DNA of 56,771 nt from Bryobacterales bacterium (GCA_030693045.1 JAUYBU010000048.1:1-56771), one strand, 5' to 3'; positions 39,402-56,771 are shown, counted from the first letter of the stretch. Notes: generated by a model not told the origin, from the sequence alone. Numbers and translations are program-made.

Positions 39402-41333
39402 TCAGTAGCTCGCCGCGCCTTTCAGGTCCACCACGGCTTCGGTTATCTGGCCCAGGTACTTGCCGTCGGCGACCACGTCGGCGGCGATGGCGAAGCGCGT
39501 GGCGTGCGGCGTCCAACTCTTGGGAATCGCGATGCTGACGCCCTGCTCGCCGGCCGAATTGGCTGGCACCTCAAACTTCACGACGCCGGGCTCGATCTTC
39601 CATTCCGGCGGCGTCACCAGCGCCACCTCGATTTTCATCGGCGACGGTTTGTAGTTCTGCGCGTGAACTCGCAGTCGGAGCGTTTCACCGGGCGCCGCCA
39701 GAACCTGGTACGGATACAGGCGGACCCAGCTCGGGTCGAGGCCGAAGTTGGTCATCCCATCGGGCAACAGGTCGGAGAAGAACTGCTGCTGCCGGCGAAG
39801 GTTCTTCTCGGTGGCCAGCATCATTTCCTTGGTCACCGCGTACGGCCGGCCGTGTCCGGGCGCGATCAGCGCGGGCTCGCGCTCGATCAGGTTGCGGATC
39901 GACTTCACGTGGCTGTCGCTTTCGACGTGGTTGCGGAAGATAAGGTTGTGCCGCATGACGCCGTCCTTGCGCCCGCTGTCGAAAAACGCGTCTCCGGTGA
40001 AGGCCACCCGGTTGCCGTCGATGACGCCGAACATGGCCATCTGATATTCGGTGTGGCCGGGCGAGTGCGTGACCTCGAACTCGAACTCCTCCCAGCGGAA
40101 CTTCTCGCCGTGCCGGAACGTGCGCGACACCTTGAACGGCTCGCTGAGAATGCACCCCAGGTTGTAGCCGCGAGGGTTCTTGAAGACGTCCACCATGTTC
40201 TCGTAGCACCAGACCTTGGCTCCATGCCGGCGGATCAGGTGTGGGAAACCGTTGACGTGATCGTCGTGCATGTGGCTGGGCATCACCACGTCGATGGACT
40301 TCAATCCGAAGCCGCGCTTCAACTCGTCGATGGAATGTTCGACGAAGCGGATGCGGTCGGTCACCGCGGTGGCGCGCTCGAAGTTGCCGAAGTGTACGCC
40401 GGAAGCCGAACCGTAGTCGATGAACAGCGCCTTGCCGCTGTCGCTGATAATCGCATAGAACGAGGAGGTCGTCTGGTAGTGCGCCACCAGGTGCGGCGAG
40501 ACCGCGAAGGGCTTGTTCTGGGCGCTGGGCGGGTTGTTGTTCTGGAAGCGGTAGTAGTCGGTGAGCCGGCTGGAGGTGGCCTGGATGGCCGGTGCCGGGT
40601 CCGTCATCGGCTCGCCGTGCGAGGGGCAAAGCAGAGCCGGTTTTTGCTCCGCCAAGCGGTCGAGCGAATAGATGCCCAGGTCCACGCCTTCGGCGCCCCC
40701 GTAGTTCACCTGCGTGTCGAACAGCGTCTGGATCTTGCCGGGCGCGTAGATCAGGTCGCCGGTGAACGCCGTCAATCGGCCGTCAACCGTCGCCAGCAGG
40801 CTGATGGAGCCGAGCGTGTGCCCGGGCGTCGGCAGGATGAAGAAGTCGGTATTGCGCCAGCGGAAGGTCGAGTAATCGGCCAGCGCCCTGGCAACTCGCA
40901 CGTTGCGCGTCAGCGTGTAGAAGTCGTTACGAACATAGTAGAGGTGAAACGCGCGGCGATTGCGCCAGTAGTTTTCGGCGTCGCTGAACAGGTGTTTCTC
41001 GTGCGCCGGGACGGCGATGGGAATGCCTCTTGCGTTTGCCTTGTGATCTCCCTGGCACTGGTCGCGGTGGTGATGCGTGTGCAGGATGAAATCGATTTTG
41101 GAGATCCCGAGCGCGGGAAGGTGATCCAGGATCCTGCCGCTTCCGAAATCGATCAGGACGCAATTTACGCCGTCCTTAATCACATATACATTGCAGGTGT
41201 CCTCGAACATCCAGAGGTTGCCGGTGATCTGGCGCGGCTTCACGGCGGGTGCGAACCCGGTGGAAGGAGCGGTGGGGGCGGCTCCAGCAACCGCCGCCGA
41301 TTCGAGAAAATCTCGACGGGTGGTCTGGCTCAT
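39402..41333 (-). CDS. tandem MBL-fold metallo-hydrolase with C-terminal beta-sandwich, Tat signal
   Basis: MSQTTRRDFLESAAVAGAAP signal. Two HxHxDH-type motifs (HTHHHRDQ and SHMHDDHVNG) are separated by about 280 aa. Confidence 0.8.
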   Translation of the reverse strand: MSQTTRRDFLESAAVAGAAPTAPSTGFAPAVKPRQITGNLWMFEDTCNVYVIKDGVNCVLIDFGSGRILDHLPALGISKIDFILHTHHHRDQCQGDHKANARGIPIAVPAHEKHLFSDAENYWRNRRAFHLYYVRNDFYTLTRNVRVARALADYSTFRWRNTDFFILPTPGHTLGSISLLATVDGRLTAFTGDLIYAPGKIQTLFDTQVNYGGAEGVDLGIYSLDRLAEQKPALLCPSHGEPMTDPAPAIQATSSRLTDYYRFQNNNPPSAQNKPFAVSPHLVAHYQTTSSFYAIISDSGKALFIDYGSASGVHFGNFERATAVTDRIRFVEHSIDELKRGFGLKSIDVVMPSHMHDDHVNGFPHLIRRHGAKVWCYENMVDVFKNPRGYNLGCILSEPFKVSRTFRHGEKFRWEEFEFEVTHSPGHTEYQMAMFGVIDGNRVAFTGDAFFDSGRKDGVMRHNLIFRNHVESDSHVKSIRNLIEREPALIAPGHGRPYAVTKEMMLATEKNLRRQQQFFSDLLPDGMTNFGLDPSWVRLYPYQVLAAPGETLRLRVHAQNYKPSPMKIEVALVTPPEWKIEPGVVKFEVPANSAGEQGVSIAIPKSWTPHATRFAIAADVVADGKYLGQITEAVVDLKGAASY

Positions 41334-41383: not shown

Positions 41384-42625
41384 ATGACCTCCCGCGAACG
41401 CGTTCTCGCCGCCATCGCTCACAAGGAGCCGGATCGCTTGCCGATCGACCAGGGATCGATGCGCTCGACCGGCATCATGGCCATCGCCTACAACCGGCTC
41501 AGCGAGCACCTTCGGATCGGCGGGCCGCCGGCCCGGCTGTATGACCTGGTGCAGCAGTTGGCGCAGCCCGACGACTGGTACCTGGAGCGGTTCCATGTCG
41601 ACGCGGTAGACCTCGGCCGCGCTTTCGAGCCGCGCGAAAGCTGGCAGCCGTGGACCTTGCCCGATGGCAGCCAGGCGCTGGCTCCGGGCTGGTTCCGGGC
41701 CGAACGCGAAAATGGCGCGACGATCTGCCGCGACGCCGCCGGGATCGTCATCGGACGCATGCCTGACGGCGCATTGTACATCGACCAGGCCGTCTGGCCG
41801 CTCTCCGGGCCCGGCGGCCTGGACGCCTGCGAGCCGCTGCCGGAGAAGATGGCGCAAGTCATCTGGGCGGCGTTGCCGACTGCGCCGTTCGACTGGCCGC
41901 TCACCAGCGAGCGCCTCGACGAAGTCGCACTGGCCGCGCGCCGCTTTCACGATTCCACCGACCGCGCCGTCTCGGTGGCCGTCGGATGCAACCTGCTCGA
42001 GTGGAGCCAATTCCTGTTCGGGATGGAAAACACGTTCGCTTACATGGCGGGCGAGAAACGCAAATTCGCCAGTTTCCTGGACCGGCTGACGGAACTCCAC
42101 CTGGAGAACCTGCGGCGCCTGCTGCCCTGCCTGCGCGGGGCGATCGACATCCTGGTGGTGGGCGACGATCTGGGCATGCAGAGCGGGCCGCAGATGTCGC
42201 GCGCCATGTATCGCGAGCTGTTTTTCCCGCGCCACCGGCGCATTTACGAGTATGCAAAACGCGAAAGCGGCGCCCATCTGTTCATGCACAACTGCGGCGG
42301 CATCTACGAGCTGATCCCGGACCTGATCGAAGCCGGCGTCGAAATCTTCAACCCCGTGCAAACATCCGCCCGGCGCATGGAGCCCGAGCGGCTCAAGCGG
42401 GAATTCGGGCGCGACTGCACTTTCTGGGGCGGCGGTTGCGACACCCAGCAGATCCTGCCAAAGGGAACGCCGGGGCAGGTTCGCGACGACGTGCGGCGGC
42501 GCATCGACACATTCGCGCCGGGCGGCGGTTTCGTGTGGGCTCCGGTGCACAACATCCTGGCCGACGTGCCGCCGGAAAACATCGTCGCGATGCTGGATGC
42601 CGCTTACGAATTTGGCTCAGGCTGA
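41384..42625 (+). CDS. uroporphyrinogen decarboxylase (URO-D) family protein (MtaA/CmuA-like)
   Basis: 413 aa. N-terminal MTSRERVLAAIAHKEPDRLPID and overall layout are typical of URO-D-fold methyltransferase/decarboxylase homologs. Specific function is unknown. Confidence 0.75.
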   Translation: MTSRERVLAAIAHKEPDRLPIDQGSMRSTGIMAIAYNRLSEHLRIGGPPARLYDLVQQLAQPDDWYLERFHVDAVDLGRAFEPRESWQPWTLPDGSQALAPGWFRAERENGATICRDAAGIVIGRMPDGALYIDQAVWPLSGPGGLDACEPLPEKMAQVIWAALPTAPFDWPLTSERLDEVALAARRFHDSTDRAVSVAVGCNLLEWSQFLFGMENTFAYMAGEKRKFASFLDRLTELHLENLRRLLPCLRGAIDILVVGDDLGMQSGPQMSRAMYRELFFPRHRRIYEYAKRESGAHLFMHNCGGIYELIPDLIEAGVEIFNPVQTSARRMEPERLKREFGRDCTFWGGGCDTQQILPKGTPGQVRDDVRRRIDTFAPGGGFVWAPVHNILADVPPENIVAMLDAAYEFGSG

Positions 42626-45435: not shown

Positions 45436-45495
45436 GGCGCTCGCATCTGGGTTATCATGTCCTCATCAGGACGTTTCACGTCACAAGGAGCGGCG

Positions 45496-46473
45496 ATGAG
45501 CATTTCACGACGAGAGTTTCTGGAGACCGCGGCGGTGGGCGCGGTGGCGGCGAACGCGGTCGCGGAAGTCGACGCAAAGACCGGGATGCCGATGCGCGTT
45601 CTGGGGCGCACCGGCTTCAAGGTGTCGCTTCTCGGGTTCGGCGGGGGCAGCCGGTTCCTCATGTACAAGGAGGAGGACAAGGCCGCCCAAGCGCTGCACA
45701 AGGCGCTCGACCTGGGCATCAATTATGTCGACTCAGCGGCGACTTACGGCGATGGGAAGAGCGAGGAATTCATCGGCAAGTTTCTGGGCCAGCGGCGCAA
45801 GGACGTCTGGCTGGTCACCAAGGTCGGCCCGCGCAAGGGGGACGAGGCCATGCGCCAGATCGAGCGCAGCCTCAAGCTGCTGCGCACCGACCATGTGAAT
45901 CTGCTGCACATCCACAGCCTGCTGGACGAGAAGGACCTGGGCGAGATCCAAGCCAAGGACGGCGTGCTGAACGTGCTTTACAAACTGCGCGACCAGAAGG
46001 TCGCGCGGAATATCGGCATCACCTGCCACGGCGACCCGGCGGTTCTCAAGTTGGCGCTCGAGCGGCACGACTTCGACTCCACGCAGATGGCGCTCAACGC
46101 GGCCAGACAGGGCCAGGGGCGCGGCGGCGGAGCGCCGAAGCCGGGCGAGCCGCTGCCGGAAGGCAGTTTTGAAACCGTCGCGCTGCCGGTGGCTTTGAAG
46201 AAGAAAATGGGCATCACCGCCATGAAGGTATTTGCCCAGGAGCGGATCGTCGGCAAGGCGCCGGTGGAGAAACTGCTGAGCTATGTGTGGTCGCTCCCGG
46301 TGGCGGCGGCGATGGCCGGCATGCCGAAGCTGGAGCACATCGAGGAGAACATCCGCCTCGCCAAAGCGTTCAAACCGATGCCGCCCGCCGAAATGCGCTT
46401 CCTTTCCGCGAACCTCTCCGAGCGGTACAAATTGGCCATCGACCGGTACTTCCTGGACCACGTCGACGCATAG
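45496..46473 (+). CDS. aldo/keto reductase, Tat signal
   Basis: ATG 45496 with AAGGAG upstream. MSISRREFLETAAVGAVAANA signal. GINYVDSAATYG and LLHIHS are AKR motifs. Confidence 0.85.
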   Translation: MSISRREFLETAAVGAVAANAVAEVDAKTGMPMRVLGRTGFKVSLLGFGGGSRFLMYKEEDKAAQALHKALDLGINYVDSAATYGDGKSEEFIGKFLGQRRKDVWLVTKVGPRKGDEAMRQIERSLKLLRTDHVNLLHIHSLLDEKDLGEIQAKDGVLNVLYKLRDQKVARNIGITCHGDPAVLKLALERHDFDSTQMALNAARQGQGRGGGAPKPGEPLPEGSFETVALPVALKKKMGITAMKVFAQERIVGKAPVEKLLSYVWSLPVAAAMAGMPKLEHIEENIRLAKAFKPMPPAEMRFLSANLSERYKLAIDRYFLDHVDA

Positions 46474-46669
46474 GGCGGGGCAGGCGGTTCCGCCTGTCTG
46501 GCACGCCAAACGGCCCGCCCCAGTGTGCCCGGAAGGAGCGGGCCCCGGCGTGAGACCGGACAGCCGCAGCAGACTATCGGGTCGATTACTTCCTTGACTT
46601 GGCCTCCCGTCACGTGTTTGAATTTCTATCGAGGCGATAATCACCATCAACTCGCATGGTGAGGGTACC

Positions 46670-47098
46670 GTGAAAATCAGCACCAGGGTGCAATACGCAC
46701 TTCGCATGATGGCCGACGTTGCCAGGAACGGCGGCCAGGGAGAAGTTGTACCCGTCGGAGACATCGCCCGCCGCCAGAATCTCTCCAGGCTCTATCTTTC
46801 CCAACTGACGGTCCCGCTCAAGAACGCCGGCTTGCTGAAGAGCGTTTGGGGCAACAAAGGGGGCTTCGTACTTGGCCGGCCGGCAGGAGTAATCAAGGTG
46901 CTGGACATCATGGAGGCCGTGGACGGCCCGGTCTGCCTGATCGACTGCATTTACGATCCCACCTACTGCGATCGAACCGCGAATTGCGAATGCATACGAG
47001 TCTGGCGCGAGGTCAACGAAGGGATCGTCCGGACTCTGTCGAGTTGCACGCTGGAAGATCTCATCCACCCCAAAATAAACTCTGGAGCCCGGTCATGA
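46670..47098 (+). CDS. Rrf2-family transcriptional regulator (Cys-rich, probably cluster-binding)
   Basis: GTG start. MKISTRVQYALRMMADVA wHTH N-terminus. Cys cluster CLIDCIYDPTYCDRTANCEC at the position of the IscR/NsrR ligands. Confidence 0.85.
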   Translation: MKISTRVQYALRMMADVARNGGQGEVVPVGDIARRQNLSRLYLSQLTVPLKNAGLLKSVWGNKGGFVLGRPAGVIKVLDIMEAVDGPVCLIDCIYDPTYCDRTANCECIRVWREVNEGIVRTLSSCTLEDLIHPKINSGARS

Positions 47099-47646
47099 CC
47101 GCAACCGCGACGGCTACCACGCCGATCGAGAGGAAAGTGCACCAGACCGTCGTCCGCCTCATGCAAGGGGACCTGACGGCGCTGGAGGTAGACGCCTTCG
47201 TCCACTACGCCAAGGAGAATCTGGAACTCGGTTCCGGCTACGGGACCGCCATCCAGAGCCGCGGGGGCGGAGCGGTGAAGAAGGAAGTGGAAAAGATCGG
47301 CGGCATCCGGATGGGCGAGGCGGTGATGACCACGGCCGGCGGGATGGCGGCGAAACATATCATTCACGCCTGCGGGCCGAAATTCCAGGAATCGGACACG
47401 GAGGGCAAACTCCGCGACTGCATGAATTCGGCGCTGCAAATCGCCCGGGAGAACGGCCTGAAAAGCGTCGCCTTCCCGCCCATGGGCGCCGGGTTCTATG
47501 GCGTGCCCCTGGCGCTTTCCGCGCAAGTGATGATCGACGCGATCCGCAGCGCCGCCGCGGCCGGGACGCCGCCCGAAGTGATCATCATCTGCACGGTTGA
47601 CGGACGCGACTTCCTGGCATTCAAGAACCAGGTCGGGGCTCTTTGA
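47095..47646 (+). CDS. macro-domain protein (divergent motifs)
   Basis: The ATG overlaps the Rrf2 stop (ATGA). LMQGDLTALEVDAFVHYAKENLELGSGYGTAI...HIIHACGPKF aligns to the macro-domain pattern (qGDIt..vDAIVNAAN..l.gGgGV.gAI...HavGP), but the NAAN position reads HYAK. Confidence 0.75.
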   Translation: MTATATATTPIERKVHQTVVRLMQGDLTALEVDAFVHYAKENLELGSGYGTAIQSRGGGAVKKEVEKIGGIRMGEAVMTTAGGMAAKHIIHACGPKFQESDTEGKLRDCMNSALQIARENGLKSVAFPPMGAGFYGVPLALSAQVMIDAIRSAAAAGTPPEVIIICTVDGRDFLAFKNQVGAL

Positions 47647-47658
47647 CGAAAGGACGGC

Positions 47659-48351
47659 ATGGAATTGGATACCACTAGCCCGCTCTTGCACTTCGCGGAA
47701 GACAAGCTTCAGATCTTCGCGCTGTCCTTCAAGGCGCTGGTCTACATCCTGAAGATTCGCTGGATATTGAAATTTCCCGCCGGCAAAGACCGCCAGGCGC
47801 CCGGCGGGAGCCCTGACACGAGCGCGCAAAAGGGAGCGATCCACTCCCTATTTAACATCGCGTTGCCCTGGGAGATGGCCAGCACGCGCCAGCACCCATT
47901 CTTCTATGTCCAATTCGTGATCTTCCACATTGGCGTCGCCGCCTCCATTCTCATGTCGCTTCTAATTCCCTACGTTCCGGAATGGATCGCGGGCAGGGCC
48001 GCGGTGGTCGCGCTTCAGTCGATCTTCGCCGCGGCATTCCTGGTGGGGCTGGTCCGAATGGCGCGGCGTCTCACCGATCCATACATCCGCGGCATCAGCA
48101 CCCCGGACGATTATTTCTCGCTGGCACTGCTGGTGGTCTGGCTCGGGTTCAGTTTTCTGGCGGCGCCGAATGACCGTCAGTCCGGCGAGTGGCCGCTGCT
48201 GGCGTACTTCTTCCTGACGGCCTTCTTCCTGGTTTACGTTCCTTTCAGCAAGATCTCGCACTATCTTTTCTACCCGTTCGCGCGCTGGTATCTCGGCAGG
48301 ACGCTGGGGCACAGAGGCGTTTATCCGGTGAAATCGGGGGCGCGCGCATGA
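47659..48351 (+). CDS. NarI/DsrM-like membrane protein (nitrate reductase gamma-subunit fold), copy 1
   Basis: 230 aa and about 5 TM helices. Conserved His in helices (VIFHIG; FSKISHYLFYPF) resemble the heme-b ligand positions of the NarI/DsrM/HmeC family. Confidence 0.65.
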   Translation: MELDTTSPLLHFAEDKLQIFALSFKALVYILKIRWILKFPAGKDRQAPGGSPDTSAQKGAIHSLFNIALPWEMASTRQHPFFYVQFVIFHIGVAASILMSLLIPYVPEWIAGRAAVVALQSIFAAAFLVGLVRMARRLTDPYIRGISTPDDYFSLALLVVWLGFSFLAAPNDRQSGEWPLLAYFFLTAFFLVYVPFSKISHYLFYPFARWYLGRTLGHRGVYPVKSGARA

Positions 48352-50075
48352 GCGAGACAAGATCCTACAAGGCGCAGAAACTGGTCGAGCGGCTGCAAGT
48401 CAAGGTCAACCGCCAGATCATGCTCTCGCTCGAGGCGTGCGTGCATTGCGGCCTATGCACGGACCAATGCCACTACGTGCTGTCCAATCCGGGAGACGTG
48501 ACTTATGCCCCGGCCTACAAGGCGGACAGAATCCGAAAGCTGTTCAAGGCGCACATCGACTGGACGGGCAAGACGCTCCCCTGGTGGGTCGGCGCCAAGA
48601 GCGTTTACACGGACCAGGAATTGGAGGATCTCAAGGACACGGTCTTCGGCAAATGCACCAACTGCCGGCGCTGTTCGCTCAACTGCCCGATGGGCGTCGA
48701 CATGGCGGTATTCAACCGCATGGCGCGCGGGTTGCTGGTGCATGTCGGCGTGATGCCCGAGGGCGTGGCGGTGGTGGCCAAGGACCAGTGGGAAATCGGC
48801 AACCAGATGGGAGTGCTCAAGGAAGACTACCTCGAGACACTCACTTGGATGGAGGAAGAGTTACAGTCCGAGTACAACGATCACTCGATCCGGATTCCGA
48901 TCGACAAGATGGATGCCGATGTGGTCTACTCGATCAATCCGCGCGAGGCCAAATACGACCCTCGCACGATTGCCGAGGCGGCGGCCATCTTCCACTTCGC
49001 CGGCGAAAACTGGACCATGCCCAGCCAAGGCTGGGACATGACTAACTTCGGCCTGTTTAACGGCGACGACGAGTTGGGCGGCGCGGTGGGCGGCCGGTTG
49101 TATGACGCGGTCGAGCGGCTGCGCGGCAAGAAGCTGGTGATTTCCGAATGCGGGCACGGGTTCCGCTCGACCCGCTGCGAAGCGCCGAACTGGGGCAAGC
49201 GGGACGTGGCTTTCCCGATGGAAAGCGCCGTCATCACCATGCTCGGCTACATCAAGCAAGGCCGCATCCAGGTGGACAAGAGCAAGAACTCCGAGCCGGT
49301 TACCTACCACGATTCCTGCAACAACGCACGCAGTTGCGGCATGACGGAGGAACCTCGCGAACTGCTGAACCTGGTGTGTTCGGATTTCCGCGAGATGCAC
49401 CCCAACCGCGCCGAGAACTTCTGCTGCACCGGCGGCGGCGGCGCGATGTCGATGACCGAGTACGCTCCGCGGCGTCTCAAGTCGGCCCGGATCAAGGCCG
49501 ATCAACTGAAGGCCACCGGCGCTAAGATCGTTGTCACTTCCTGTCACAACTGCGTGGATGGCCTGTTCGATCTGATCAAGCACTACAAGCTCGACATGCA
49601 GGTGAAACTGCTGGTGAACCTGGTTGCCAGCGCGCTGGTGGTTCCGGAACGCCCCTCCAGGAAGATGAGGCCGCTGGAGGGATACAAGATTCTGGTCATC
49701 GACGACGAGCCGGATATCAGGGTCTACCTGGGCAAGATCTTCAAGGATCAGGGCTGCCTGGTCACCGAAGCGCCCGACGCCAACCAGGGCATGCGCGCCA
49801 TCAAGGCCGACAGACCCGATCTGGTCACGCTGGACCTGATTCTCCCTTACATGACGGGCGAGAAGCTGTACTGGGAATTGCGCAAGGACCAGAAGACCGC
49901 GGACCTGCCGGTGGTTATCGTGTCCGGGTATGCGGCGGTGGACTCGCCGAGGATCGACTTCTTCGGATTCCTTGCCGAAAAGCGTCTGCCGCAGCCCAAC
50001 GGATTCCTAGAAAAGCCGGTTGACCCGGAGAAGTTGATCGAGACGGTGCGGGCCGTTCTCCTGGAGAAGGCGTGA
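48348..50075 (+). CDS. HdrD/DsrK-like CCG-domain iron-sulfur protein fused to a C-terminal response-regulator receiver domain
   Basis: The ATG overlaps the upstream stop (ATGA). Two ferredoxin-type motifs (CVHCGLCTDQC, CTNCRRCSLNCP). CCG-type motifs (ECGHG, HDSCN, FCCTGGGG, SCHNC). The C-terminal about 125 aa, KILVIDDEPDIR...DLVTLDLILP...VVIVSG...EKP, has all canonical receiver residues. Confidence 0.8.
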   Translation: MSETRSYKAQKLVERLQVKVNRQIMLSLEACVHCGLCTDQCHYVLSNPGDVTYAPAYKADRIRKLFKAHIDWTGKTLPWWVGAKSVYTDQELEDLKDTVFGKCTNCRRCSLNCPMGVDMAVFNRMARGLLVHVGVMPEGVAVVAKDQWEIGNQMGVLKEDYLETLTWMEEELQSEYNDHSIRIPIDKMDADVVYSINPREAKYDPRTIAEAAAIFHFAGENWTMPSQGWDMTNFGLFNGDDELGGAVGGRLYDAVERLRGKKLVISECGHGFRSTRCEAPNWGKRDVAFPMESAVITMLGYIKQGRIQVDKSKNSEPVTYHDSCNNARSCGMTEEPRELLNLVCSDFREMHPNRAENFCCTGGGGAMSMTEYAPRRLKSARIKADQLKATGAKIVVTSCHNCVDGLFDLIKHYKLDMQVKLLVNLVASALVVPERPSRKMRPLEGYKILVIDDEPDIRVYLGKIFKDQGCLVTEAPDANQGMRAIKADRPDLVTLDLILPYMTGEKLYWELRKDQKTADLPVVIVSGYAAVDSPRIDFFGFLAEKRLPQPNGFLEKPVDPEKLIETVRAVLLEKA

Positions 50076-50080
50076 GACCC

Positions 50081-50171
50081 AATTTCGGGGACAGGCTACG
50101 AAATCCCGAAACTCGGCTTCGCGTCGCTGCCGGCAGGGTATTTCGGGATTTCGTAGCCTGTCCCCGAAATT
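50081..50171. repeat. 31-bp perfect inverted repeat
   Basis: AATTTCGGGGACAGGCTACGAAATCCCGAAA at 50081-50111 and its exact reverse complement at 50141-50171, with a 29-nt loop. It starts 6 nt after the stop at 50075 and ends 22 nt before the kinase ATG. Confidence 0.9.
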
Positions 50172-50192
50172 CGCTCTGAAAGGACGGTCGCA

Positions 50193-51629
50193 ATGACGGT
50201 TCAGCTCGACGGACTGGAAAACGCCGGCAGGCGGCTGTTTGACGAAGCTCCCTGCTACATCTCGATTCAGGACCGGGAATTTCGCGTTATCGACGCGAAC
50301 CGGGCGGTGTTGGAGGGGTTCGGCGACGCGATCTCCAAGAACTGCTATGCGGTCTTCAAGGGCCGGCGGGAGCGCTGCACGGAATGCCCGGTGGCGCACA
50401 CTTTCGAAGACGGCCGCGAACACTGCATCGAGGAAGTGATCTTCGACAGCCGGGGCTTGCCGCACGAGGTGATTGTCCGCACGCGGCCGCTGCGTGATGC
50501 GAGCGGCGCTGTCACGGCGGTGATGCAACTGTTCACCGACATTACCGTGCAGAAGGAATTGGAACACCGCCTGCACGAAAGCCTCAATCGTTTTCACAGC
50601 CTCTTCGACATTTCGCCTTGCTTCGTTTCGGTCCAGAACCGGGACCTGCGCGTGGTGGAGGCGAACACCCAATTCAAAGAGACTTTCGGAAACCCGGCGG
50701 GCAGACACTGCTACGAGATCTACAAGCGACACAAGGAGCGTTGCCCCGAGTGTCCGGTGCTGGAGTCATTCGCCGACGGCAAGGCGCATACCCGCGAGAG
50801 CGTCTGGGTGGACAGAAGCGGAAAAGAAGTGTTGGTGGTGGTGCAGACGGCGCCGATCCGCGACTCCCTCGGCAATGTCGTCGATGTGATGAAGGTGTCC
50901 ACCGACATCACCGAGGTCCGCGTGCTTCAGGACCAGCTCGCCTCTCTGGGCAAACTGGTCGGCGGCATCGCCCACAGCGTCAAGAACGTGCTCGAGGGGT
51001 TGCGCGGCGGCGTCTATATCGTCAATCTCGGGTTCCGCGATAACAATCAGGAGGACATTCGCACGGGCTGGGCCATGGTGGAGCGAAACGTCGCACGCAT
51101 CTCCAGCATGGTGATGGACATGCTCTACTGCGCCAAGGACCGCTCGCCGCGCCGGCTTCCGGTTTCGCTTCCCTCCGTGCTGGGCGAGGTTGTCGAGCTG
51201 TTCCGGCCACGCGCGACCGAATGCGGCATCCGGCTGGAAACGGAGGTCGCCGAGGGAGATTGCGTCGTGCCCGGCGAGCCGAAGGACATCCACTCGCTGA
51301 TCTCGAACCTGATCACGAACGCCATTGACGCATGTTGTTCCGAGCAGGACGGGAAGAAGCCGCACCGCGTGCTGGCGCGCGTACGCCGCGACGGAGATTG
51401 GGCCGTGCTGGAAGTGGAAGACAACGGCGCGGGCATGGACGAAGAGGCGCACGGGAAGCTGTTCACCACCTTCTACTCGACCAAGGGCGCATACGGCACC
51501 GGCCTGGGATTGCTGGTTTCCCACAAAGTGGCGACCGAGCATGGCGGAACGATTTCGGCCCGGTCGGCGCCGGGTGAAGGCGCCACATTCACGGTGAAAC
51601 TCCCCCTCCAAACCGGAGAGACCAAATGA
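50193..51629 (+). CDS. sensor histidine kinase with two Cys-rich PAS-like modules (cytoplasmic)
   Basis: 478 aa with no TM segment. Two similar N-terminal modules, each with 4 Cys. H-box IAHSVKNVLEGL, N-box ITNAIDAC, G-boxes EDNGAGMD and GTGLGL. Confidence 0.85.
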   Translation: MTVQLDGLENAGRRLFDEAPCYISIQDREFRVIDANRAVLEGFGDAISKNCYAVFKGRRERCTECPVAHTFEDGREHCIEEVIFDSRGLPHEVIVRTRPLRDASGAVTAVMQLFTDITVQKELEHRLHESLNRFHSLFDISPCFVSVQNRDLRVVEANTQFKETFGNPAGRHCYEIYKRHKERCPECPVLESFADGKAHTRESVWVDRSGKEVLVVVQTAPIRDSLGNVVDVMKVSTDITEVRVLQDQLASLGKLVGGIAHSVKNVLEGLRGGVYIVNLGFRDNNQEDIRTGWAMVERNVARISSMVMDMLYCAKDRSPRRLPVSLPSVLGEVVELFRPRATECGIRLETEVAEGDCVVPGEPKDIHSLISNLITNAIDACCSEQDGKKPHRVLARVRRDGDWAVLEVEDNGAGMDEEAHGKLFTTFYSTKGAYGTGLGLLVSHKVATEHGGTISARSAPGEGATFTVKLPLQTGETK

Positions 51630-52030
51630 AGAAGATACTCGTCGTTGACGATGAAGAAGACGTTCGCACTTACCTTGGCAGGCTCTTCCAGGAGAGCGGC
51701 TATGAGGTCGCCTGCGCCGGTGACGGCAACCAGGCGCTCGAGCAGGTCGAGAAGGAAAGACCGGACCTCATCACGCTCGATCTTTCGATGCCCGCGAAGT
51801 CGGGAGTGAAGTTTTACCGCGAGATCAAGGCGAAACCGGAACTGAGCGGCGTCGCGGTGGTTCTTGTAACCGGCGTCACCGGTCCGGGCGGTAGTGCGGC
51901 CGACACCGAGCGCTTTTACAGCACCAGGCGCCAGACGCCACCGCCGGACGGTTTCATAGCCAAGCCCATAGACCGCGAGGAAATACTCGACATCGTGAGC
52001 CGGCTGATTGGCCCCGGAGAACGGGCATGA
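51626..52030 (+). CDS. single-domain response regulator (receiver only)
   Basis: The ATG overlaps the kinase stop (ATGA). KILVVDDEEDVR...DLITLDLSMP...VLVTG...AKP. Confidence 0.9.
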   Translation: MKKILVVDDEEDVRTYLGRLFQESGYEVACAGDGNQALEQVEKERPDLITLDLSMPAKSGVKFYREIKAKPELSGVAVVLVTGVTGPGGSAADTERFYSTRRQTPPPDGFIAKPIDREEILDIVSRLIGPGERA

Positions 52031-52929
52031 CGCTGGCCGTGTATGTGATCATCTATGCCGCCGCGCTGGTCTTCCTGATCGCCTCGGTGGTGCGCGCGGT
52101 CCGGTACGCCAGGCTTCCGCTGCATTTGCGCTGGGAACTGTACCCTGTACCTCACGAGGAGCCCGAACGCGTGAAGCACGGAGGTTCTTACTTCGAAAAA
52201 GTGGACTGGTGGGAGAAACCGACTCACTTCAACTGGTGGGGCGAGGTGAAATTCATGACCCCCGAGATGCTCTTTCTGAAGGGCCTTTGGGAGTTCAATC
52301 GCAGTCTCTGGTTCCGCTCGTTCCCGTTCCATTTCGGCTTGTACCTGGTCCTCGCCACGATCGGGCTTCTGATCGCCAGCGTGCTGATTGGAACCTCCGC
52401 GCTGCACGCCTGCTACATGCTGACCGGGATCGCCGGCGCGGCGTTGACGGTTGCGGGCGCACTGGGCTTGCTCCTGCGCCGGTTGACGGACCCGAACCTC
52501 AAGAACGGCACTACGCCGGCCGACATATTCAACCTGGTATTCTTCGTCGTGGTCTTCGGCCTGCTCGCCGCCGGTTACCTGACGGCGGGGGCGAGCTTTC
52601 CGGGCATGTTGGTGCTGGTGCACGGCCTGCTGACTTTCAATGTGAGCGTCGATATCCCGCTGGTGCTCGCAGCGGGCCTGGTGCTGGGCGCTCTTCTCGC
52701 CGCTTACATCCCGCTTACTCACATGTCGCACTTCATCGCGAAGTACTTCACCTATCACTCGATACGCTGGGACGACGCGCCGAATCGTGGCGACGTCAGG
52801 CTGGCGAGGAGGATCGCCGCGAACCTTACTTACCGGCCGACATGGGCGGCGCCTCATATCGGCGCCGATGGCAAGAAGACCTGGGCCGAAATCGCGACCA
52901 CGAATCCAGCGTCAGGGACGAAGAAATGA
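52027..52929 (+). CDS. NarI/DsrM-like membrane protein, copy 2
   Basis: The ATG overlaps the upstream stop (ATGA). 300 aa, multi-TM. FPFHFGLY and IPLTHMSHFIAKYFTYHSIRWDD are typical of the DsrM/HmeC-type family. Confidence 0.75.
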   Translation: MTLAVYVIIYAAALVFLIASVVRAVRYARLPLHLRWELYPVPHEEPERVKHGGSYFEKVDWWEKPTHFNWWGEVKFMTPEMLFLKGLWEFNRSLWFRSFPFHFGLYLVLATIGLLIASVLIGTSALHACYMLTGIAGAALTVAGALGLLLRRLTDPNLKNGTTPADIFNLVFFVVVFGLLAAGYLTAGASFPGMLVLVHGLLTFNVSVDIPLVLAAGLVLGALLAAYIPLTHMSHFIAKYFTYHSIRWDDAPNRGDVRLARRIAANLTYRPTWAAPHIGADGKKTWAEIATTNPASGTKK

Positions 52930-54536
52930 AGAAGGCTCCAGTCCGGCTGGACGATCTTGCCGGCGCCGGGAAAAGGCCTCTGATCCATCTAGAGAACGAA
53001 GATCTGATGTCATTGCCCGCGCCCCTCGACCATCCTTCGAAGGATCACAACTGGCCGCCGCTCTCCGCGCAGGCCGGAGAGAAATTCGAGTGCTTCCTCG
53101 ACGACACGTGCGCGGTGAGCATTCCGCAACCGAAAACCAAGGAGGAAGAAGACGCACTGGTGGCCAAGTTCCTCTCCGGGTTGGACAAGCTCTTTGTCAA
53201 GGAGAATAACTGGAGCTTTCTTCAACCCCTGCTGCTGACCATGGAGCATTGCGCCAAGTGCCAGACGTGTTCCGAGGCGTGTCACATCTATGAAGCGTCG
53301 GGCCGGGAAGAGATCTACCGGCCGACCTTTCGCTCCGAAATCCTCCGGCGGCTGTACTTCAAGTACGTGAAACACGGAGGCATGCTTTCCTCCTGGCAGC
53401 ATGGAGCGATCACGCTGAACTGGCCTCTGGTGGCCCGGCTGATCGAACTGTCGTACCGCTGTAACCTCTGCCGCCGCTGTGCGCAGACCTGCCCTATCGG
53501 CGTCGACAACGGACTGGTAGCGCACGAACTCAGGAAGTTATTCAGCCAGGAAATGGGGATCGCGCCGAAAGAGATTCACGACAACGGCTCGATGCTTCAG
53601 CTCAGGGTCGGCTCTTCGACCGGCATGAACTCCGAAGTGGTCAAGGACAACATCGAGTTCATTGACGAGGACATCAGCGAGAAGGCCGGCATCCATGTGG
53701 AGACCCCGTGGGACGTCGAGGGCGCCGACGTGCTGCTGATTCACAACGCCGGCGAGATCATGGCCTGGCCCGAGAATCCCGGCGCGTTCGCCCTGATTCT
53801 CAACGCCGCCGGCATCAAGTGGACCCTGTCTTCCGAGATCGCCGGTTACGACTCCATCAACTACGGCCTGTGGTACGACGACGCCCAGTTCGCGCGCGTC
53901 GCGATCAAGCACGCCGAGGCGGCCAAGAAGCTGAAGGTAAAAAAGATCGTTCTGGGCGAATGCGGGCATGCGCACAAAGCGCTCTCCGTCATCGCGGACC
54001 GGATCCTCACCGGCGACCTGAACATCCCGCGCGAAAGTTCCATGACCCTGCTGCGCGACATCGTGATGAGCGATCGCATTAAGCTCGATCCCAGTCGGAA
54101 CGACTTTCCCGTGACGCTGCACGATCCCTGCAACCTGGTGCGGCTGATGGGCGTGGTGGAACCGCAGCGCGAGATCGTCCGCAAGATCTGTCCCAAGTTC
54201 CGGGAGATGGAGCCTCACGGCGTGGACAATTACTGTTGCGGCGGCGGAAGCGGCTTCGCCATTATGAGCGGCCACAATTTCGCCGACTGGCGATTCCACG
54301 TCTCCGGCCGGAAGAAGATCGAGCAGATCCTCAACGCCTTCGCCAACTGCACGGATGCCTCCATTCCGAAGTACGTCTGCGCCCCGTGCAGCAACTGCAA
54401 GGGGATGATCCGAGACATGATCGCGTACTACAATCTCTGGGAGAGCAACCGGATTCACTATGGCGGCCTGGTGGAACTGATCGTCAACGCCATGGTGGAC
54501 GTGAAGCCGGGTTTCATCGATTGGGAGTGGCGCTGA
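52926..54536 (+). CDS. HdrD/DsrK-like CCG-domain iron-sulfur protein, copy 2
   Basis: The ATG overlaps the upstream stop (ATGA). CAKCQTCSEAC and CNLCRRCAQTCP ferredoxin motifs. ECGHAHK, HDPCN, YCCGGGSG and CAPCSNC are CCG motifs. No receiver domain. Confidence 0.8.
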   Translation: MKKAPVRLDDLAGAGKRPLIHLENEDLMSLPAPLDHPSKDHNWPPLSAQAGEKFECFLDDTCAVSIPQPKTKEEEDALVAKFLSGLDKLFVKENNWSFLQPLLLTMEHCAKCQTCSEACHIYEASGREEIYRPTFRSEILRRLYFKYVKHGGMLSSWQHGAITLNWPLVARLIELSYRCNLCRRCAQTCPIGVDNGLVAHELRKLFSQEMGIAPKEIHDNGSMLQLRVGSSTGMNSEVVKDNIEFIDEDISEKAGIHVETPWDVEGADVLLIHNAGEIMAWPENPGAFALILNAAGIKWTLSSEIAGYDSINYGLWYDDAQFARVAIKHAEAAKKLKVKKIVLGECGHAHKALSVIADRILTGDLNIPRESSMTLLRDIVMSDRIKLDPSRNDFPVTLHDPCNLVRLMGVVEPQREIVRKICPKFREMEPHGVDNYCCGGGSGFAIMSGHNFADWRFHVSGRKKIEQILNAFANCTDASIPKYVCAPCSNCKGMIRDMIAYYNLWESNRIHYGGLVELIVNAMVDVKPGFIDWEWR

Positions 54537-54923
54537 GCGCGCCTTCGAGGACAGCTTCGATCTTGCGGCGCAATTCGGCCGCAAGACGTGGGCGGGCACG
54601 ATGAAGTCGCACGCCCCCGGGTCGTCGGCGACATTCACCGGAATGCCGCGCCGCTTCGCCTCGCGCTCGACACGCCGGTTTGCTTCACGGCAGTTGGTGG
54701 CCGCATATGCGAGACAGGCATCCTTCAAGTCCGAGGGACGAAACGCCCGCCCGATCCGTGTTACGGGTAGCGCGTCGAATTCGGCGGCCCAGGCGGGCGA
54801 GACGACGCTGACTCGCGCTCCCGCCTCGATCAGGCCTTTCGCTTTCCGCAGCCCCACCTTCCCGGCCCCCACCACCACGACGGCCTTTCCTCTCAGGTCA
54901 AGGAATATCGGATAGTGGCGCAT
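54514..54923 (-). pseudogene. SirC/CysG-N-like precorrin-2 dehydrogenase, apparently frameshifted and truncated
   Basis: MRHYPIFLDLRGKAVVVVGAGKVGLRKAKGLIEAGARV...NVADDPGACDFIVPAHV is a typical N-terminus. The expected RGxLxIAISTxGxSP segment is missing. The following family motif (LAAELRRKIEAVLEG) is in another frame and stops at 54514. The original frame runs on antisense through the neighbouring gene. Confidence 0.5.
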
Positions 54924-55254: not shown

Positions 55255-55944
55255 TCATGCGCTGAACTTGTAGCCGAGGCCGCGCAGCGTGAGGATGAAG
55301 CGCGGATGCCGCGGGTCGTCCTCCACCTTCTGGCGCAGCCAAGTGACATGCACGTCCACGGTGCGGGTGGTGGGCAGGGCGTCATAGCCCCACACCTCCC
55401 GTAGCAGCTCCTCGCGGGTGATCAGCGTGCCGCGGCGCTCGATGAGATATCGCAGGAGCTGGAACTCGCGCGCCGACAGGGGAACGGACTGGCCGCCGCG
55501 CGTCACCTGGCCAGCGCGGAAGTCCACCGTGGCGCCGCCGAAGCCGAAGGTGGCGGGCGTGGCGGGCGCCCCGTTGCGGCCGGCGCGGCGCAGCAAGGCT
55601 TGGATGCGCGCCATCAGCTCCGGGAACTCAAACGGCTTGGTGAGATAGTCGTCGGCCCCAAGCTGGAGCCCCACCACCTTGTCGACCAATTGGCCGCGCG
55701 CCGTCAGCATCAGAATCGGCGTGGCGATGTCCTGCCGGCGCAGGGCGCGGCAGATGTCCAGGCCGGACTTGCGCGGCAGCATGAGGTCCAAGAGGATGAG
55801 ATCATGCGCGGCCTCCAGTGCCGCGGCCAGGCCGGATTCGCCGTCGGTGCGCGAATCCACGGTGTAGCATTCGGCCAGCAGCCGGTCGGTGAGCGTGAGG
55901 ACCAGTCCGGGCTCGTCCTCGATCAGCAGGATGCGGGGGTTCAA
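55255..55944 (-). CDS. OmpR/PhoB-type response regulator
   Basis: 229 aa. ILLIEDEPGL...DLILLDLMLP receiver, then a winged-helix C-terminus (LSAREFQLLRYL...RGLGYKF). Confidence 0.9.
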   Translation of the reverse strand: MNPRILLIEDEPGLVLTLTDRLLAECYTVDSRTDGESGLAAALEAAHDLILLDLMLPRKSGLDICRALRRQDIATPILMLTARGQLVDKVVGLQLGADDYLTKPFEFPELMARIQALLRRAGRNGAPATPATFGFGGATVDFRAGQVTRGGQSVPLSAREFQLLRYLIERRGTLITREELLREVWGYDALPTTRTVDVHVTWLRQKVEDDPRHPRFILTLRGLGYKFSA

Positions 55945-56771
55945 GATGCCTCCTGGGAACAGGTGGGCAAAGTCAGCAGAAAGCGCGCGCCGCCGGAGGT
56001 CCGGTTTTCGGCGGTGAGCGTTCCGCCGTGGGATTCGGCGATGCGCCGCGCAAGCGTCAGGCCGAGGCCGAAGCCGCGCGTCTGGGCGTCCAGCGCCGCC
56101 CGGCCGCGGTAGAAGGGCTCGAACAGGTGCGGCAGGTCCTCGGCGGCGAAACCCCGGCCGCGATCGCTGACGGTGATCTGCACCTGGCCGTCCCGGCGCG
56201 CGGCGACCAGCTCGATGCGGCCTCCGGCGCCGCCATGCAGGGCGGCGTTGGCGATGAGGTTGCGGAGGCAGTGGGTAAGGGCCGCGGAGTCGGCCGGAAC
56301 AGGCGGCAACCCGGGCTCCAGGCGGAGGTCGAGCGCGACCTGGTTTTCCCGCAACTCGGCGGAGCAGGCCTGGACGGCGGCCTGTAGGATAGGCTCGAGT
56401 TCGGCCGGCCGCGGTGGTGGCTCCACGCGCCCGCTCCGGATGTCGGCGTAACGCAGGATCTGCTCCACCATGGCGGTCAGGCGGCGGCCCTCGGACTGGA
56501 TCAGCGCGCCGTACTGGCGGACCTGCGGCGGGGCGGCGACCACGCCATCGGCCAGGTTGCCGGCGGCGGCGCCGATGACCGAGAGCGGCGTGCGTAGCTC
56601 GTGGGAAACGCCGGCGACAAATTCCATCTGCCGGCGGGCCAGCCGCTCGGCGCGGCGCGTGGCCACCGTGAGGGCGGCCAGGGCGGCGGCCAGCAGCATC
56701 AGCACGGCGGCGCTTAGGGTCAGATTGCGGTAGCGCGTGACCGCGACGGCCTGCTCCAGCCCGCCGGAGCG
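55941..56771 (-). CDS. sensor histidine kinase (N-terminus beyond window end)
   Basis: HisKA H-box FVAGVSHELRTPL and HATPase motifs (NLIANAALHG, DRGRGF, GFGLGL). The reading frame stays open upstream of the track start to the window edge and includes a TM helix. The stop overlaps the regulator start. Confidence 0.85.
   Translation of the reverse strand, partial: RSGGLEQAVAVTRYRNLTLSAAVLMLLAAALAALTVATRRAERLARRQMEFVAGVSHELRTPLSVIGAAAGNLADGVVAAPPQVRQYGALIQSEGRRLTAMVEQILRYADIRSGRVEPPPRPAELEPILQAAVQACSAELRENQVALDLRLEPGLPPVPADSAALTHCLRNLIANAALHGGAGGRIELVAARRDGQVQITVSDRGRGFAAEDLPHLFEPFYRGRAALDAQTRGFGLGLTLARRIAESHGGTLTAENRTSGGARFLLTLPTCSQEAS

Follow-up and report, generated by a model that had tools for sequence, protein, structure and literature searches.

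We analysed a 56,771-nt stretch of DNA from a Bryobacterales bacterium (GCA_030693045.1 JAUYBU010000048.1:1-56771; hereafter, the window), in which a cluster of eight plus-strand genes at positions 46670-54536 joins two pairs of NarI-like and CCG-type redox proteins to two-component signalling proteins. Five of these genes form a cassette that recurs in many bacterial phyla and that, in part of the loci, adjoins genes of dissimilatory sulfur (Dsr) metabolism. An earlier interpretation made from the nucleotide sequence of the window (below, the sequence-only reading) had proposed the whole cluster as an undescribed system; calls of open reading frames (ORFs) reproduced its eight genes, together with their coordinates and their five ATGA overlaps.

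The cluster begins with genes for an Rrf2 regulator (g1, 46670-47098), a macro-domain protein (g2, 47095-47646), a membrane protein resembling HmcE, TmcC and DsrM (g3, 47659-48351), and an HmcF/TmcB-like Fe-S/CCG protein with a C-terminal receiver (g4, 48348-50075; its type is denoted F::REC). These are followed by genes for a soluble histidine kinase with two Cys4-PAS domains (g5, 50193-51629), a stand-alone receiver of the DVU0259 type (g6, 51626-52030), and paralogues of DsrM (DsrM2; g7, 52027-52929) and DsrK (DsrK2; g8, 52926-54536). Five junctions are 4-nt start/stop overlaps (at 47095, 48348, 51626, 52027, and 52926), and the other two are gaps of 12 nt (g2-g3) and 117 nt (g4-g5). No terminator-like site was found on the plus strand inside the cluster, and co-transcription of all eight genes is likely. 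Pfam profile searches bore out the domains that had been predicted for all eight proteins, with the Nitrate_red_gam match of g3 staying under the cut-off.

In g4, Pfam recognizes Fer4_8, CCG (2.4e-11), and Response_reg domains. Its best NCBIfam matches are HmcF (348 bits vs. a cut-off of 750), TmcB (317 vs. 735), and DsrK (247 vs. 400), all under the equivalog cut-offs. Two ferredoxin motifs CX2CX2CX3C (C31/34/37/41 and C103/106/109/113) and a single CCG motif (C324...C359C360...C399xxC402, with CCT in place of CCG) show no variation across 83 homologues, and the catalytic-type cysteine C268, in the motif SECGH, is 100% conserved in the same set. The receiver matches best the DVU0259 family of NCBIfam (7.6e-23; 81 bits vs. 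a cut-off of 160), and the residues of its pocket, D452/D453, D496, and K556, are invariant or nearly so in homologues. The AF2 model of g4 (pLDDT 79.7) consists of a CCG-type body, a disordered linker (residues 436-439), and a CheY-like domain; in a Foldseek search the body matched LutA (TMt 0.64) and the tail matched receivers (TMt 0.8-0.9). A sequence search of the PDB yielded no structure of DsrK, HmcF, or TmcB, the sole match being 9ojn, an Fe-S-binding reductase (3e-11). One CCG motif together with a conserved cysteine in T/GECGH is the signature common to DsrK, HmcF, and TmcB (Barbosa et al., 2024). In its broad form, i.e., two ferredoxin motifs, a single CCG motif, and (S/G)ECGH, this signature is present in both g4 and g8. 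The fusion of a receiver to the CCG protein upholds the proposal that a redox pair of this kind is joined here to two-component signalling.

The membrane partner, g3, has five hydrophobic segments and matches Nitrate_red_gam weakly (18.4 bits vs. a Pfam cut-off of 22.9); its NCBIfam matches, HmcE (1.1e-16; 61 bits vs. a cut-off of 275) and TmcC (2.1e-12), are likewise under the cut-offs. Nevertheless, a profile of the g3 family aligns with that of genuine DsrM in hhalign with a probability of 95.6% (E 1.1e-8). The invariant histidines H90 and H201 align with H133 and H275 of DsrM, as do H102 and H235 of g7, a protein with 5-6 hydrophobic segments. Neither g3 nor g7 has a histidine where DsrM has H143 and H257, so that both lack the full set of four ligands. 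We take the retained pair to bind the cytoplasm-proximal haem, by analogy with H56/H205 of NarI. Hence, g3 is a probable mono-haem cytochrome b, and the residues retained suggest that both g3 and g7 are mono-haem cytochromes b with an atypical quinone site.

The kinase g5 contains two PAS domains (PAS_4/PAS_9) and HATPase_c (2.2e-26), and, like g2, has no hydrophobic segments. Its phospho-acceptor histidine H261 is 99% conserved, and each PAS domain carries a set of four cysteines (C21/51/62/65 and C143/173/184/187) with 72-97% conservation in 75 homologues, in line with the cysteine-rich kinase anticipated earlier. A sequence search among solved structures found no relative of the PAS pair. 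The stand-alone receiver g6 (Response_reg, 1.6e-22) has the residues DDE...TLD...KP and matches DVU0259_DivK of NCBIfam (3.5e-29; 101 bits vs. a cut-off of 160). It is 38% identical to the receiver of g4 (E 4e-32), by which similarity the two receivers are paralogues. The parts needed for two-component signalling are thus all in place: the acceptor histidine and the ATPase domain in g5, and the acidic pocket, acceptor Asp, and Lys in the receivers of g4 and g6. Pfam found no DNA-binding output domain in the core two-component proteins. The sequence-only reading had described a phosphorelay. This cannot be maintained, as no Hpt domain was found in the eight proteins by Pfam or among the conserved neighbours in 81 related loci; the arrangement is therefore a branched two-component system with one kinase and two receivers.

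The product of g2 matches Pfam Macro (4.4e-28), its nearest solved structure being TTHA0132 (2dx6; 2.2e-25), and its NCBIfam scores (at most 111 bits) are under cut-offs of at least 200. The GD.T motif with the adenine-binding Asp and both Gly-rich phosphate loops are conserved. The NAAN motif is replaced by HYAK, with the pattern x-Y-A-x conserved in 73 homologues, and with it is lost the ribose-binding/catalytic Asn expected of a MacroD/AF1521-type hydrolase. Since the asparagines of NAAN are lost and the Asp and Gly loops are kept, g2 is likelier to be a nucleotide-binding regulator than a hydrolase; it is probably a cytoplasmic, non-hydrolytic macro domain.

A database search with g4 returned more than 3,700 proteins at E<=1e-10. 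The best 120 matches are all fusions of Fer4, CCG, and receiver domains with 72-95% identity. At 50% clustering, P0121 (53% identity) is the only full-length fused representative among the matches listed, and the next full-length relatives are unfused proteins of 410-460 aa with 36-44% identity. In a scan limited to one genome per species, relatives of g4 were identified in 401 species genomes; the best 80 of the 401 match through the receiver (residues 1-571) with 63-91% identity. By their record titles, the loci of these 80 belong to Acidobacteriota, Binatota, Zixibacteria, Ignavibacteria, Calditrichota, Planctomycetota, Thermodesulfobacteriota, Gemmatimonadota, Poribacteria, Abyssobacteria, Eiseniibacteria, and others.

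For the analysis of synteny, all ORFs of 81 non-redundant loci (designated L001 and so on) were clustered, and the result was checked by tblastn. The order Macro, HmcE-like, F::REC, Cys4-PAS kinase, lone receiver is retained in about 70 of the 81 loci, from at least 12 phylum-level groups. Relative to the start of g4, the macro gene lies at about -1250, the HmcE-like gene at about -700, F::REC at 0, the kinase at about +1800, and the receiver at about +3250. Counted separately, the macro gene was found in 72 loci (immediately ahead of the HmcE-like gene), the HmcE-like gene in 75, F::REC in 81, and the kinase in 73; the lone receiver was found in 56 by ORF clustering, and most gaps in the core fall at contig ends. 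The occurrence of the same order in about 70 independent genomes puts the arrangement far beyond chance. The neighbourhood check that the sequence-only reading had recommended thus traced the cassette to at least 12 phylum-level groups and sustained the idea of a single conserved functional unit, although the unit consists of five genes rather than eight. One relative, L123 (ena:ERZ25039554 contig_21681), has a kinase 96% identical to g5 and carries the cassette between entirely different flanking genes; the cassette seems to move as a block. The F::REC gene of L123 is in two pieces, for which a frameshift in the long-read assembly is the probable cause.

The gene ahead of Macro varies among the 81 loci and usually encodes a Cys-rich regulator. 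Rrf2 occupies this position directly in 23 loci. In 12 loci it is held by a 71-aa protein, which usually has a gene for a sigma54 activator (LMWPc and PAS domains) ahead of it; in 11, by a protein combining HTH_17, a Cys-rich region, and a receiver; and in two, by a MerR protein with a Cys-rich part. In six loci, sat is directly ahead of Macro. Examples of the sigma54 activator, with its phosphatase-like LMWPc domain and Cys-bearing PAS domain, accompanied by the 71-aa protein, are found in L036, L038, L046, and L057. In L039, L056, L059, and L071 the Rrf2 slot is filled by the HTH_17 protein, which has a receiver-like domain and a linker rich in Cys, and in L043 and L053 by the MerR protein with a Cys-rich tail. 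Outside Acidobacteriota, this looks like a non-orthologous replacement of a redox-sensing transcription factor.

The Rrf2 protein of the window, g1 (Pfam Rrf2, 6.8e-34), is under the NCBIfam equivalog cut-offs for IscR, CymR, NsrR, and RirA. Its cysteines C93, C100, and C106 are invariant in 29 homologues, and it probably belongs to the Fe-S-binding type. In nine acidobacterial loci a conserved 9-mer box, ATCAACTCG, precedes the start codon of Rrf2 at a distance of about 15-25 nt; these are the window (46646-46654, plus strand; distance about 20 nt) and eight relatives (L002, position 8260; L007, 8299; L009, 1723; L016, 1340; L017, 8267; L018, 8260; L019, 8237; L021, 8254). In some of them the box lies within a palindrome, e.g., the 9-nt inverted repeat GACCGAGTT-N4-AACTCGGTC in L019. 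It is a candidate Rrf2 operator, or else a leader element.

The second redox pair, g7/g8, follows the core in 14 of the 81 loci, mainly in Acidobacteriota and Binatota. The membrane protein g7 matches Nitrate_red_gam above the cut-off (39.1 bits vs. 22.9; 8.4e-10), and the profile of its family aligns with DsrM with a probability of 98.4% (E 4.6e-15). In g8, Pfam identifies Fer4_8 and CCG (1.6e-7), and the NCBIfam DsrK profile scores 325 bits (4.8e-97) vs. a cut-off of 400. As a control, the genuine DsrK from the dsrMKJOP operon of L001 scores 716 bits and its DsrK2 neighbour 336. The ferredoxin motifs of g8 (C109/112/115/119 and C179/182/185/189), GECGH at C346, and the CCG motif C402...C437C438(G)...C485xxC488 are all present. 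Identity between the DsrK, DsrK2, and F::REC groups is 27-31%, which marks them as distinct paralogous subfamilies in one family.

In peatland Acidobacteria, DsrMK paralogues have been named dsrM2/dsrK2 and a homologue of precorrin-2 dehydrogenase, a siroheme-synthesis gene linked to dsr clusters, has been named dsrV; a table for the metagenome-assembled genome (MAG) SbA5 gives dsrM2, dsrK2, and dsrV as the consecutive genes SBA5_810017/16/15 (Hausmann et al., 2018). Downstream of g8 and convergent with it lies a dsrV-like precorrin-2 dehydrogenase gene (54514-54923, minus strand; Pfam NAD_binding_7, 1.8e-31), and the order of g7, g8, and this gene equals the dsrM2-dsrK2-dsrV order of SbA5. 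By this match of gene order and by the profile scores, g7/g8 are the DsrM2K2 pair already named in Acidobacteria. The dsrV-like gene is broken: its N-terminal part ends at 54585 and its C-terminal part (54594-54514), which overlaps the end of g8, is in another frame, with about 14 residues missing through an internal deletion and a frameshift. L005 has an intact copy in this position. The window copy is either a pseudogene or the product of an assembly error.

Since the core comprises five genes, the gene upstream of it varies, and g7/g8 follow it in no more than 14 loci, the eight-gene arrangement is lineage-specific. The conserved unit is the five-gene cassette, and Rrf2, DsrM2K2, and the hairpin described next are lineage-specific additions by which the eight-gene form elaborates it.

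The gap between g4 and g5, the only sizeable one in the cluster, is occupied by a long palindrome (50075-50177, assigned to neither strand), whose 37-nt arms (50075-50111 and 50141-50177) are 95% complementary, with 31 bp perfect, and enclose a 29-nt loop. The RNA fold has an energy of -70.5 kcal/mol (z = -7.4). The hairpin had been noticed before as a perfect one within the system; it is real, with its 31 perfect base pairs, but it is not part of the system. None of the 86 related loci has it, not even L007 with its 91% identity, and relatives have a median g4-g5 gap of 25 nt. A 25-nt arm sequence occurs on 36 metagenome contigs from groundwater, sediment, and peat; in five instances two copies face each other in inverted orientation across a loop of 6 to 38 nt. 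The hairpin is therefore a recent insertion of a dispersed repeat resembling repetitive extragenic palindromes (REPs) or miniature inverted-repeat transposable elements (MITEs), although it may affect the stability or processing of mRNA between g4 and g5. A terminator, an attenuator, and a riboswitch were considered and rejected, as the hairpin has no T-run, matches no Rfam family, and is not conserved.

A trivial explanation, namely that the cluster consists of eight unrelated adjacent transcription units, or that its macro domain is the sign of an island for defence or ADP-ribosylation, could appeal to the 117-nt gap, whose very stable hairpin splits the cluster, and to the occurrence of macro domains in conflict systems. 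It appears highly improbable, since the order of genes is fixed in about 70 genomes of many phyla, five junctions are 4-nt overlaps, the dividing hairpin is a recent insertion absent from relatives, and the cluster has no internal terminator-like site on its strand. In PADLOC, no defence family matched the cluster except for a weak, generic receiver similarity of g6, and on this result the defence-island interpretation of the macro domain was rejected.

The association of the cassette with sulfur metabolism is seen directly in related genomes. In the Binatota locus L001, the order dsrL-like, dsrC, dsrT, dsrM, dsrK, dsrJ, dsrO, dsrP, sat runs straight into Macro, HmcE-like, F::REC, kinase, receiver, dsrM2, and dsrK2. 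The Bryobacteraceae locus L004 has aprA, aprB, and, further on, dsrN and sat upstream of the cassette; in L005 (88% identity), dsrN and sat precede it and the convergent precorrin-2 dehydrogenase gene follows. Loci of Zixibacteria and Ignavibacteria have dsrAB (NIR_SIR), dsrL-like, dsrN, and dsrMKJOP genes within 10 kb. Altogether, dsr, sat, or apr genes are found within 10 kb in 19 of the 81 loci. Between phyla, F::REC proteins are 64-75% identical, compared to 73-77% for the genuine DsrK proteins of the same loci; F::REC hence diverges about as much as DsrK, which fits joint inheritance or transfer. Moreover, the cassette is found largely in the same phyla as those newly recognised to bear dsrAB (Acidobacteriota, Zixibacteria, and others).

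Several further genes recur beside sat/dsrN and the cassette in Acidobacteriota and Binatota, encoding a DVU0150-family protein, a TauE-type permease, a DUF4881 protein, and a PEP-utilising PPDK_N protein (L004, 3588-5579; L005, 1008-3033; L001, 17375-20863). These may be the "syntenic genes of unknown function" in Figure 2 of Hausmann et al. (2018).

The sequence-only reading had noted the lack of a dsrAB, dsrC, hdrA, or narGH partner in the window and had taken the cluster for a module without a pathway. The first point stands: among the 20 neighbouring ORFs of the window, Pfam detected no dsrAB, dsrC, apr, sat, hdrA, or narGH, the broken dsrV-like gene being the one trace of the pathway. 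The second point is refuted, because in relatives the cassette directly adjoins at least one of sat, dsrC, dsrT, dsrMKJOP, dsrAB, dsrN, dsrL, and aprBA. Membership of the pairs in a characterised family with known partners nearby in related genomes, which had been named beforehand as the outcome that would speak against such a module, is what was observed.

We consider the cassette to be an accessory, signal-controlled electron-transfer module of dissimilatory sulfur metabolism, providing a phosphorylation-gated link between quinones and thiols or trisulfides; in our estimate the chances of this reading are about even. Several observations weigh against it. As just stated, the window itself has none of the catalytic Dsr genes, and 62 of the 81 loci have no dsr, sat, or apr genes within 10 kb, many of these being short contigs. 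In L002 and L018-L021, the cassette adjoins genes for cytochrome oxidase, ferrochelatase, and a GlcD-CCG fusion. For CO124, an acidobacterial MAG with published oxic and anoxic transcriptomes, the neighbour of sat encodes a TPR protein rather than the cassette, and neither the conserved g4 peptides nor the words "Macro domain" were found in the supplement describing this MAG (Dyksma and Pester, 2023), a result that by itself speaks neither for nor against the reading. Quinone coupling may be atypical, as the membrane subunits keep only one of the DsrM histidine pairs, and the substrate may differ, as both CCG proteins score under the curated cut-offs for HmcF, TmcB, and DsrK.

Part of this evidence would favour a different explanation, in which the five-gene core is a general quinone-linked thiol/disulfide or Fe-S stress module, its adjacency to dsr genes is secondary, and in this window it works without any Dsr pathway. 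Apart from the lack of Dsr genes in the window and in the available flanks of the 62 loci, and the cytochrome oxidase neighbourhoods of L002 and L018-L021, it could account for the 96%-identical cassette in different flanks and for the presence of Rrf2, as regulators of this family commonly report Fe-S, NO, or cysteine status. On the other hand, adjacency to dsr, sat, and apr recurs in several phyla in a tight, operon-like order, the distribution over phyla largely follows that of dsrAB, and the best family matches are all proteins of sulfate respiration. We regard the general stress module as rather unlikely.

Comparison with characterised systems helps to separate what is old in the cassette from what is new. 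The closest one is HmcEF of Desulfovibrio vulgaris Hildenborough, a NarI-related membrane cytochrome b with a single-CCG Fe-S protein bearing the T/GECGH-type Cys; HmcF and HmcE are the best NCBIfam matches of g4 and g3, respectively. Like the present cluster, HmcEF is tied to an Rrf2-family regulator and a receiver protein, there Rrf2 and Rrf1, rrf1 being a response-regulator gene. The genes rrf1 and rrf2 are located downstream of hmcABCDEF and both regulate hmc; the Rrf2 family is named after rrf2 of this locus (Keon et al., 1997). In contrast to Hmc, the multihaem cytochrome c HmcA and the subunits HmcB, HmcC, and HmcD are absent here and in relatives, the F subunit has a receiver as part of its own chain, a dedicated PAS kinase and a macro protein belong to the core, and the E subunit keeps only one His pair. 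TmcB and TmcC of TmcABCD are the second-best matches of g4 and g3, and both receivers match best the DVU0259 family. The tmc genes are DVU0263-0266, and DVU0259 presumably lies just upstream of them in D. vulgaris, to judge from locus-tag order; Desulfovibrio would then possess these components as separate, unfused proteins. Unlike tmc, the cassette has no TmcA or TmcD; tmc, for its part, is not known to include a receiver fusion, a Cys4-PAS kinase, or a macro domain. Clusters of genes of the Hmc or Tmc complex kind were found neither among the conserved neighbours in the 81 loci nor in the window. By the Hmc and Tmc precedents, the pairing of an HmcEF/TmcBC-type module with Rrf2 and with single-domain receivers is old.

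The DsrMK part of DsrMKJOP is the best match of g7/g8, with GECGH and CCG kept; the differences are the absence of DsrJOP beside g7/g8, an identity of only about 30% to genuine DsrK, and the single His pair of DsrM2. Thus, the two pairs fall within characterised families: g3/g4 are closest to HmcEF/TmcBC, and g7/g8 are DsrM2K2. More distantly, HdrED of Methanosarcina and NarI share with the cassette a membrane b-type cytochrome of the NarI fold and, in HdrED, a CCG Fe-S subunit, but HdrD has two CCG motifs vs. one here, NarGH is absent here, and the substrate differs.

No paper was found that describes a characterised system of this composition, in agreement with the sequence-only reading, although the hmc-rrf1-rrf2 locus is a precedent for the link between Rrf2, a receiver, and HmcEF. 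In the literature covered, which was limited to open-access papers and hence is weak evidence, no description of a receiver fused to a DsrK-type protein was found, nor any paper dealing with a macro domain, dissimilatory sulfate reduction, and a histidine kinase together, or with the surroundings of DVU0259 and tmc. The accessible parts of genomic surveys of dsr-bearing lineages do not describe the cassette, and those of the earlier work naming DsrM2K2 do not describe a two-component/macro cassette ahead of this pair. Already known are the Dsr/Hmc/Tmc family membership, the names DsrM2K2 and dsrV, and the regulatory precedent in Desulfovibrio. The new features are the fusion of a receiver to the catalytic subunit, the dedicated soluble Cys4-PAS kinase, the obligatory macro protein, and the loss of all periplasmic subunits. 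The five-gene cassette, with an Fe-S catalytic subunit doubling as a response regulator, is apparently a distinct, widespread, and undescribed variant.

DsrMKJOP is a menadiol:DsrC-trisulfide oxidoreductase (Barbosa et al., 2024). From the motifs, the conservation, and the dsr/sat/apr linkage described above, we infer a possible substrate, signal, and effect of phosphorylation for the cassette. In the manner of DsrMK, the pair of HmcE-like and F::REC proteins would connect the menaquinone pool electronically with a carrier in the cytoplasm, be it a thiol, a disulfide, or a trisulfide; DsrC is the most likely candidate. The kinase would sense the cytoplasmic redox state, O2, or metal status by its Cys4-PAS domains and would phosphorylate both g6 and the receiver domain of the CCG protein. 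Since the enzyme takes the place of the output domain of a response regulator, phosphorylation of the fused receiver would then switch how active the redox pair is or whether it assembles. The free receiver might have DsrM2K2 as its target or be a sink for phosphate, and the Rrf2 protein, as an Fe-S-type repressor, would add transcriptional control in the acidobacterial lineage.

In a bolder version of this scheme, F::REC would be the first response regulator that is at the same time the catalytic Fe-S subunit of a respiratory oxidoreductase linked to quinones, with phosphorylation switching the flow between menaquinone and DsrC (or another thiol carrier) within seconds, and with the macro domain sensing adenosine 5'-phosphosulfate (APS), AMP, or ADP-ribose for the same switch. 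We offer it tentatively and consider it doubtful in this full form.

Alternatively, the HmcE/F-like pair might be an enzyme-derived sensor of the quinone pool or of DsrC rather than an enzyme carrying bulk flux. The fused receiver would then be a redox-modulated phosphate sink or an integrator, and the output would proceed via the free receiver and the Cys-rich transcription factor. An analogous design is known in the regulatory [NiFe] hydrogenase HoxBC, an H2-sensing enzyme homologue that is wired to the PAS-containing histidine kinase HoxJ and the regulator HoxA; the analogy is limited in that the families are unrelated, and there the enzyme contacts the kinase and carries no receiver. Consistent with a sensor, the presence of a genuine DsrMKJOP in the same genomes means that the catalytic job is already covered, the core is always located beside signalling proteins, usually a Cys-rich regulator (Rrf2, the sigma54 activator with PAS, the HTH_17-Cys-receiver protein, or MerR-Cys), the membrane subunit has lost one pair of haem ligands, and the core two-component system has no DNA-binding output. 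However, by the usual logic of two-component systems a receiver controls the domain fused to it, and a sensor would be expected at the kinase input, without a receiver. All catalytic residues are also invariant, though an enzyme-derived sensor could keep them too. We consider the sensor unlikely, and retain the gated electron-transfer module as our working interpretation.

Other genes of the window appear unrelated to the cassette or show no sign of belonging to it. Downstream, on the opposite strand, a separate pair of an OmpR-type response regulator and a histidine kinase is encoded at 55255-56705 (minus strand); the OmpR-type regulator is syntenic in L007. Upstream are an exported metallo-beta-lactamase-fold protein with a weak match to a twin-arginine translocation (TAT) signal (39402-41333, minus strand), a URO-D-like gene (41384-42625), and an exported aldo/keto reductase with an N-terminal signal-like region (45457-46473, plus strand), all apparently unrelated to the cassette.

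The cassette bears on the control of dissimilatory sulfate and sulfite reduction, a little-understood matter especially in recently found soil and sediment lineages that also respire O2, where the direction of the Dsr pathway cannot be read from the genome, and the Dsr-linked regulators DsrT, DsrD, and Rrf1/Rrf2 are poorly understood. The cassette reported here is widespread, is conserved about as strongly as DsrK, and in part of the loci sits in dsr/sat/apr clusters. The lineages concerned, i.e., Acidobacteriota, Zixibacteria, Ignavibacteria, and others, are often facultatively aerobic. Should the cassette prove to be a sensor, it would still provide a marker gene set. If phosphorylation does gate the enzyme, this would be a new mode of respiratory control, giving a handle on when the carriers reduce and when they oxidise sulfur, and the cassette might serve facultatively aerobic Dsr lineages as a post-translational valve by which sulfur respiration is started, stopped, or reversed.

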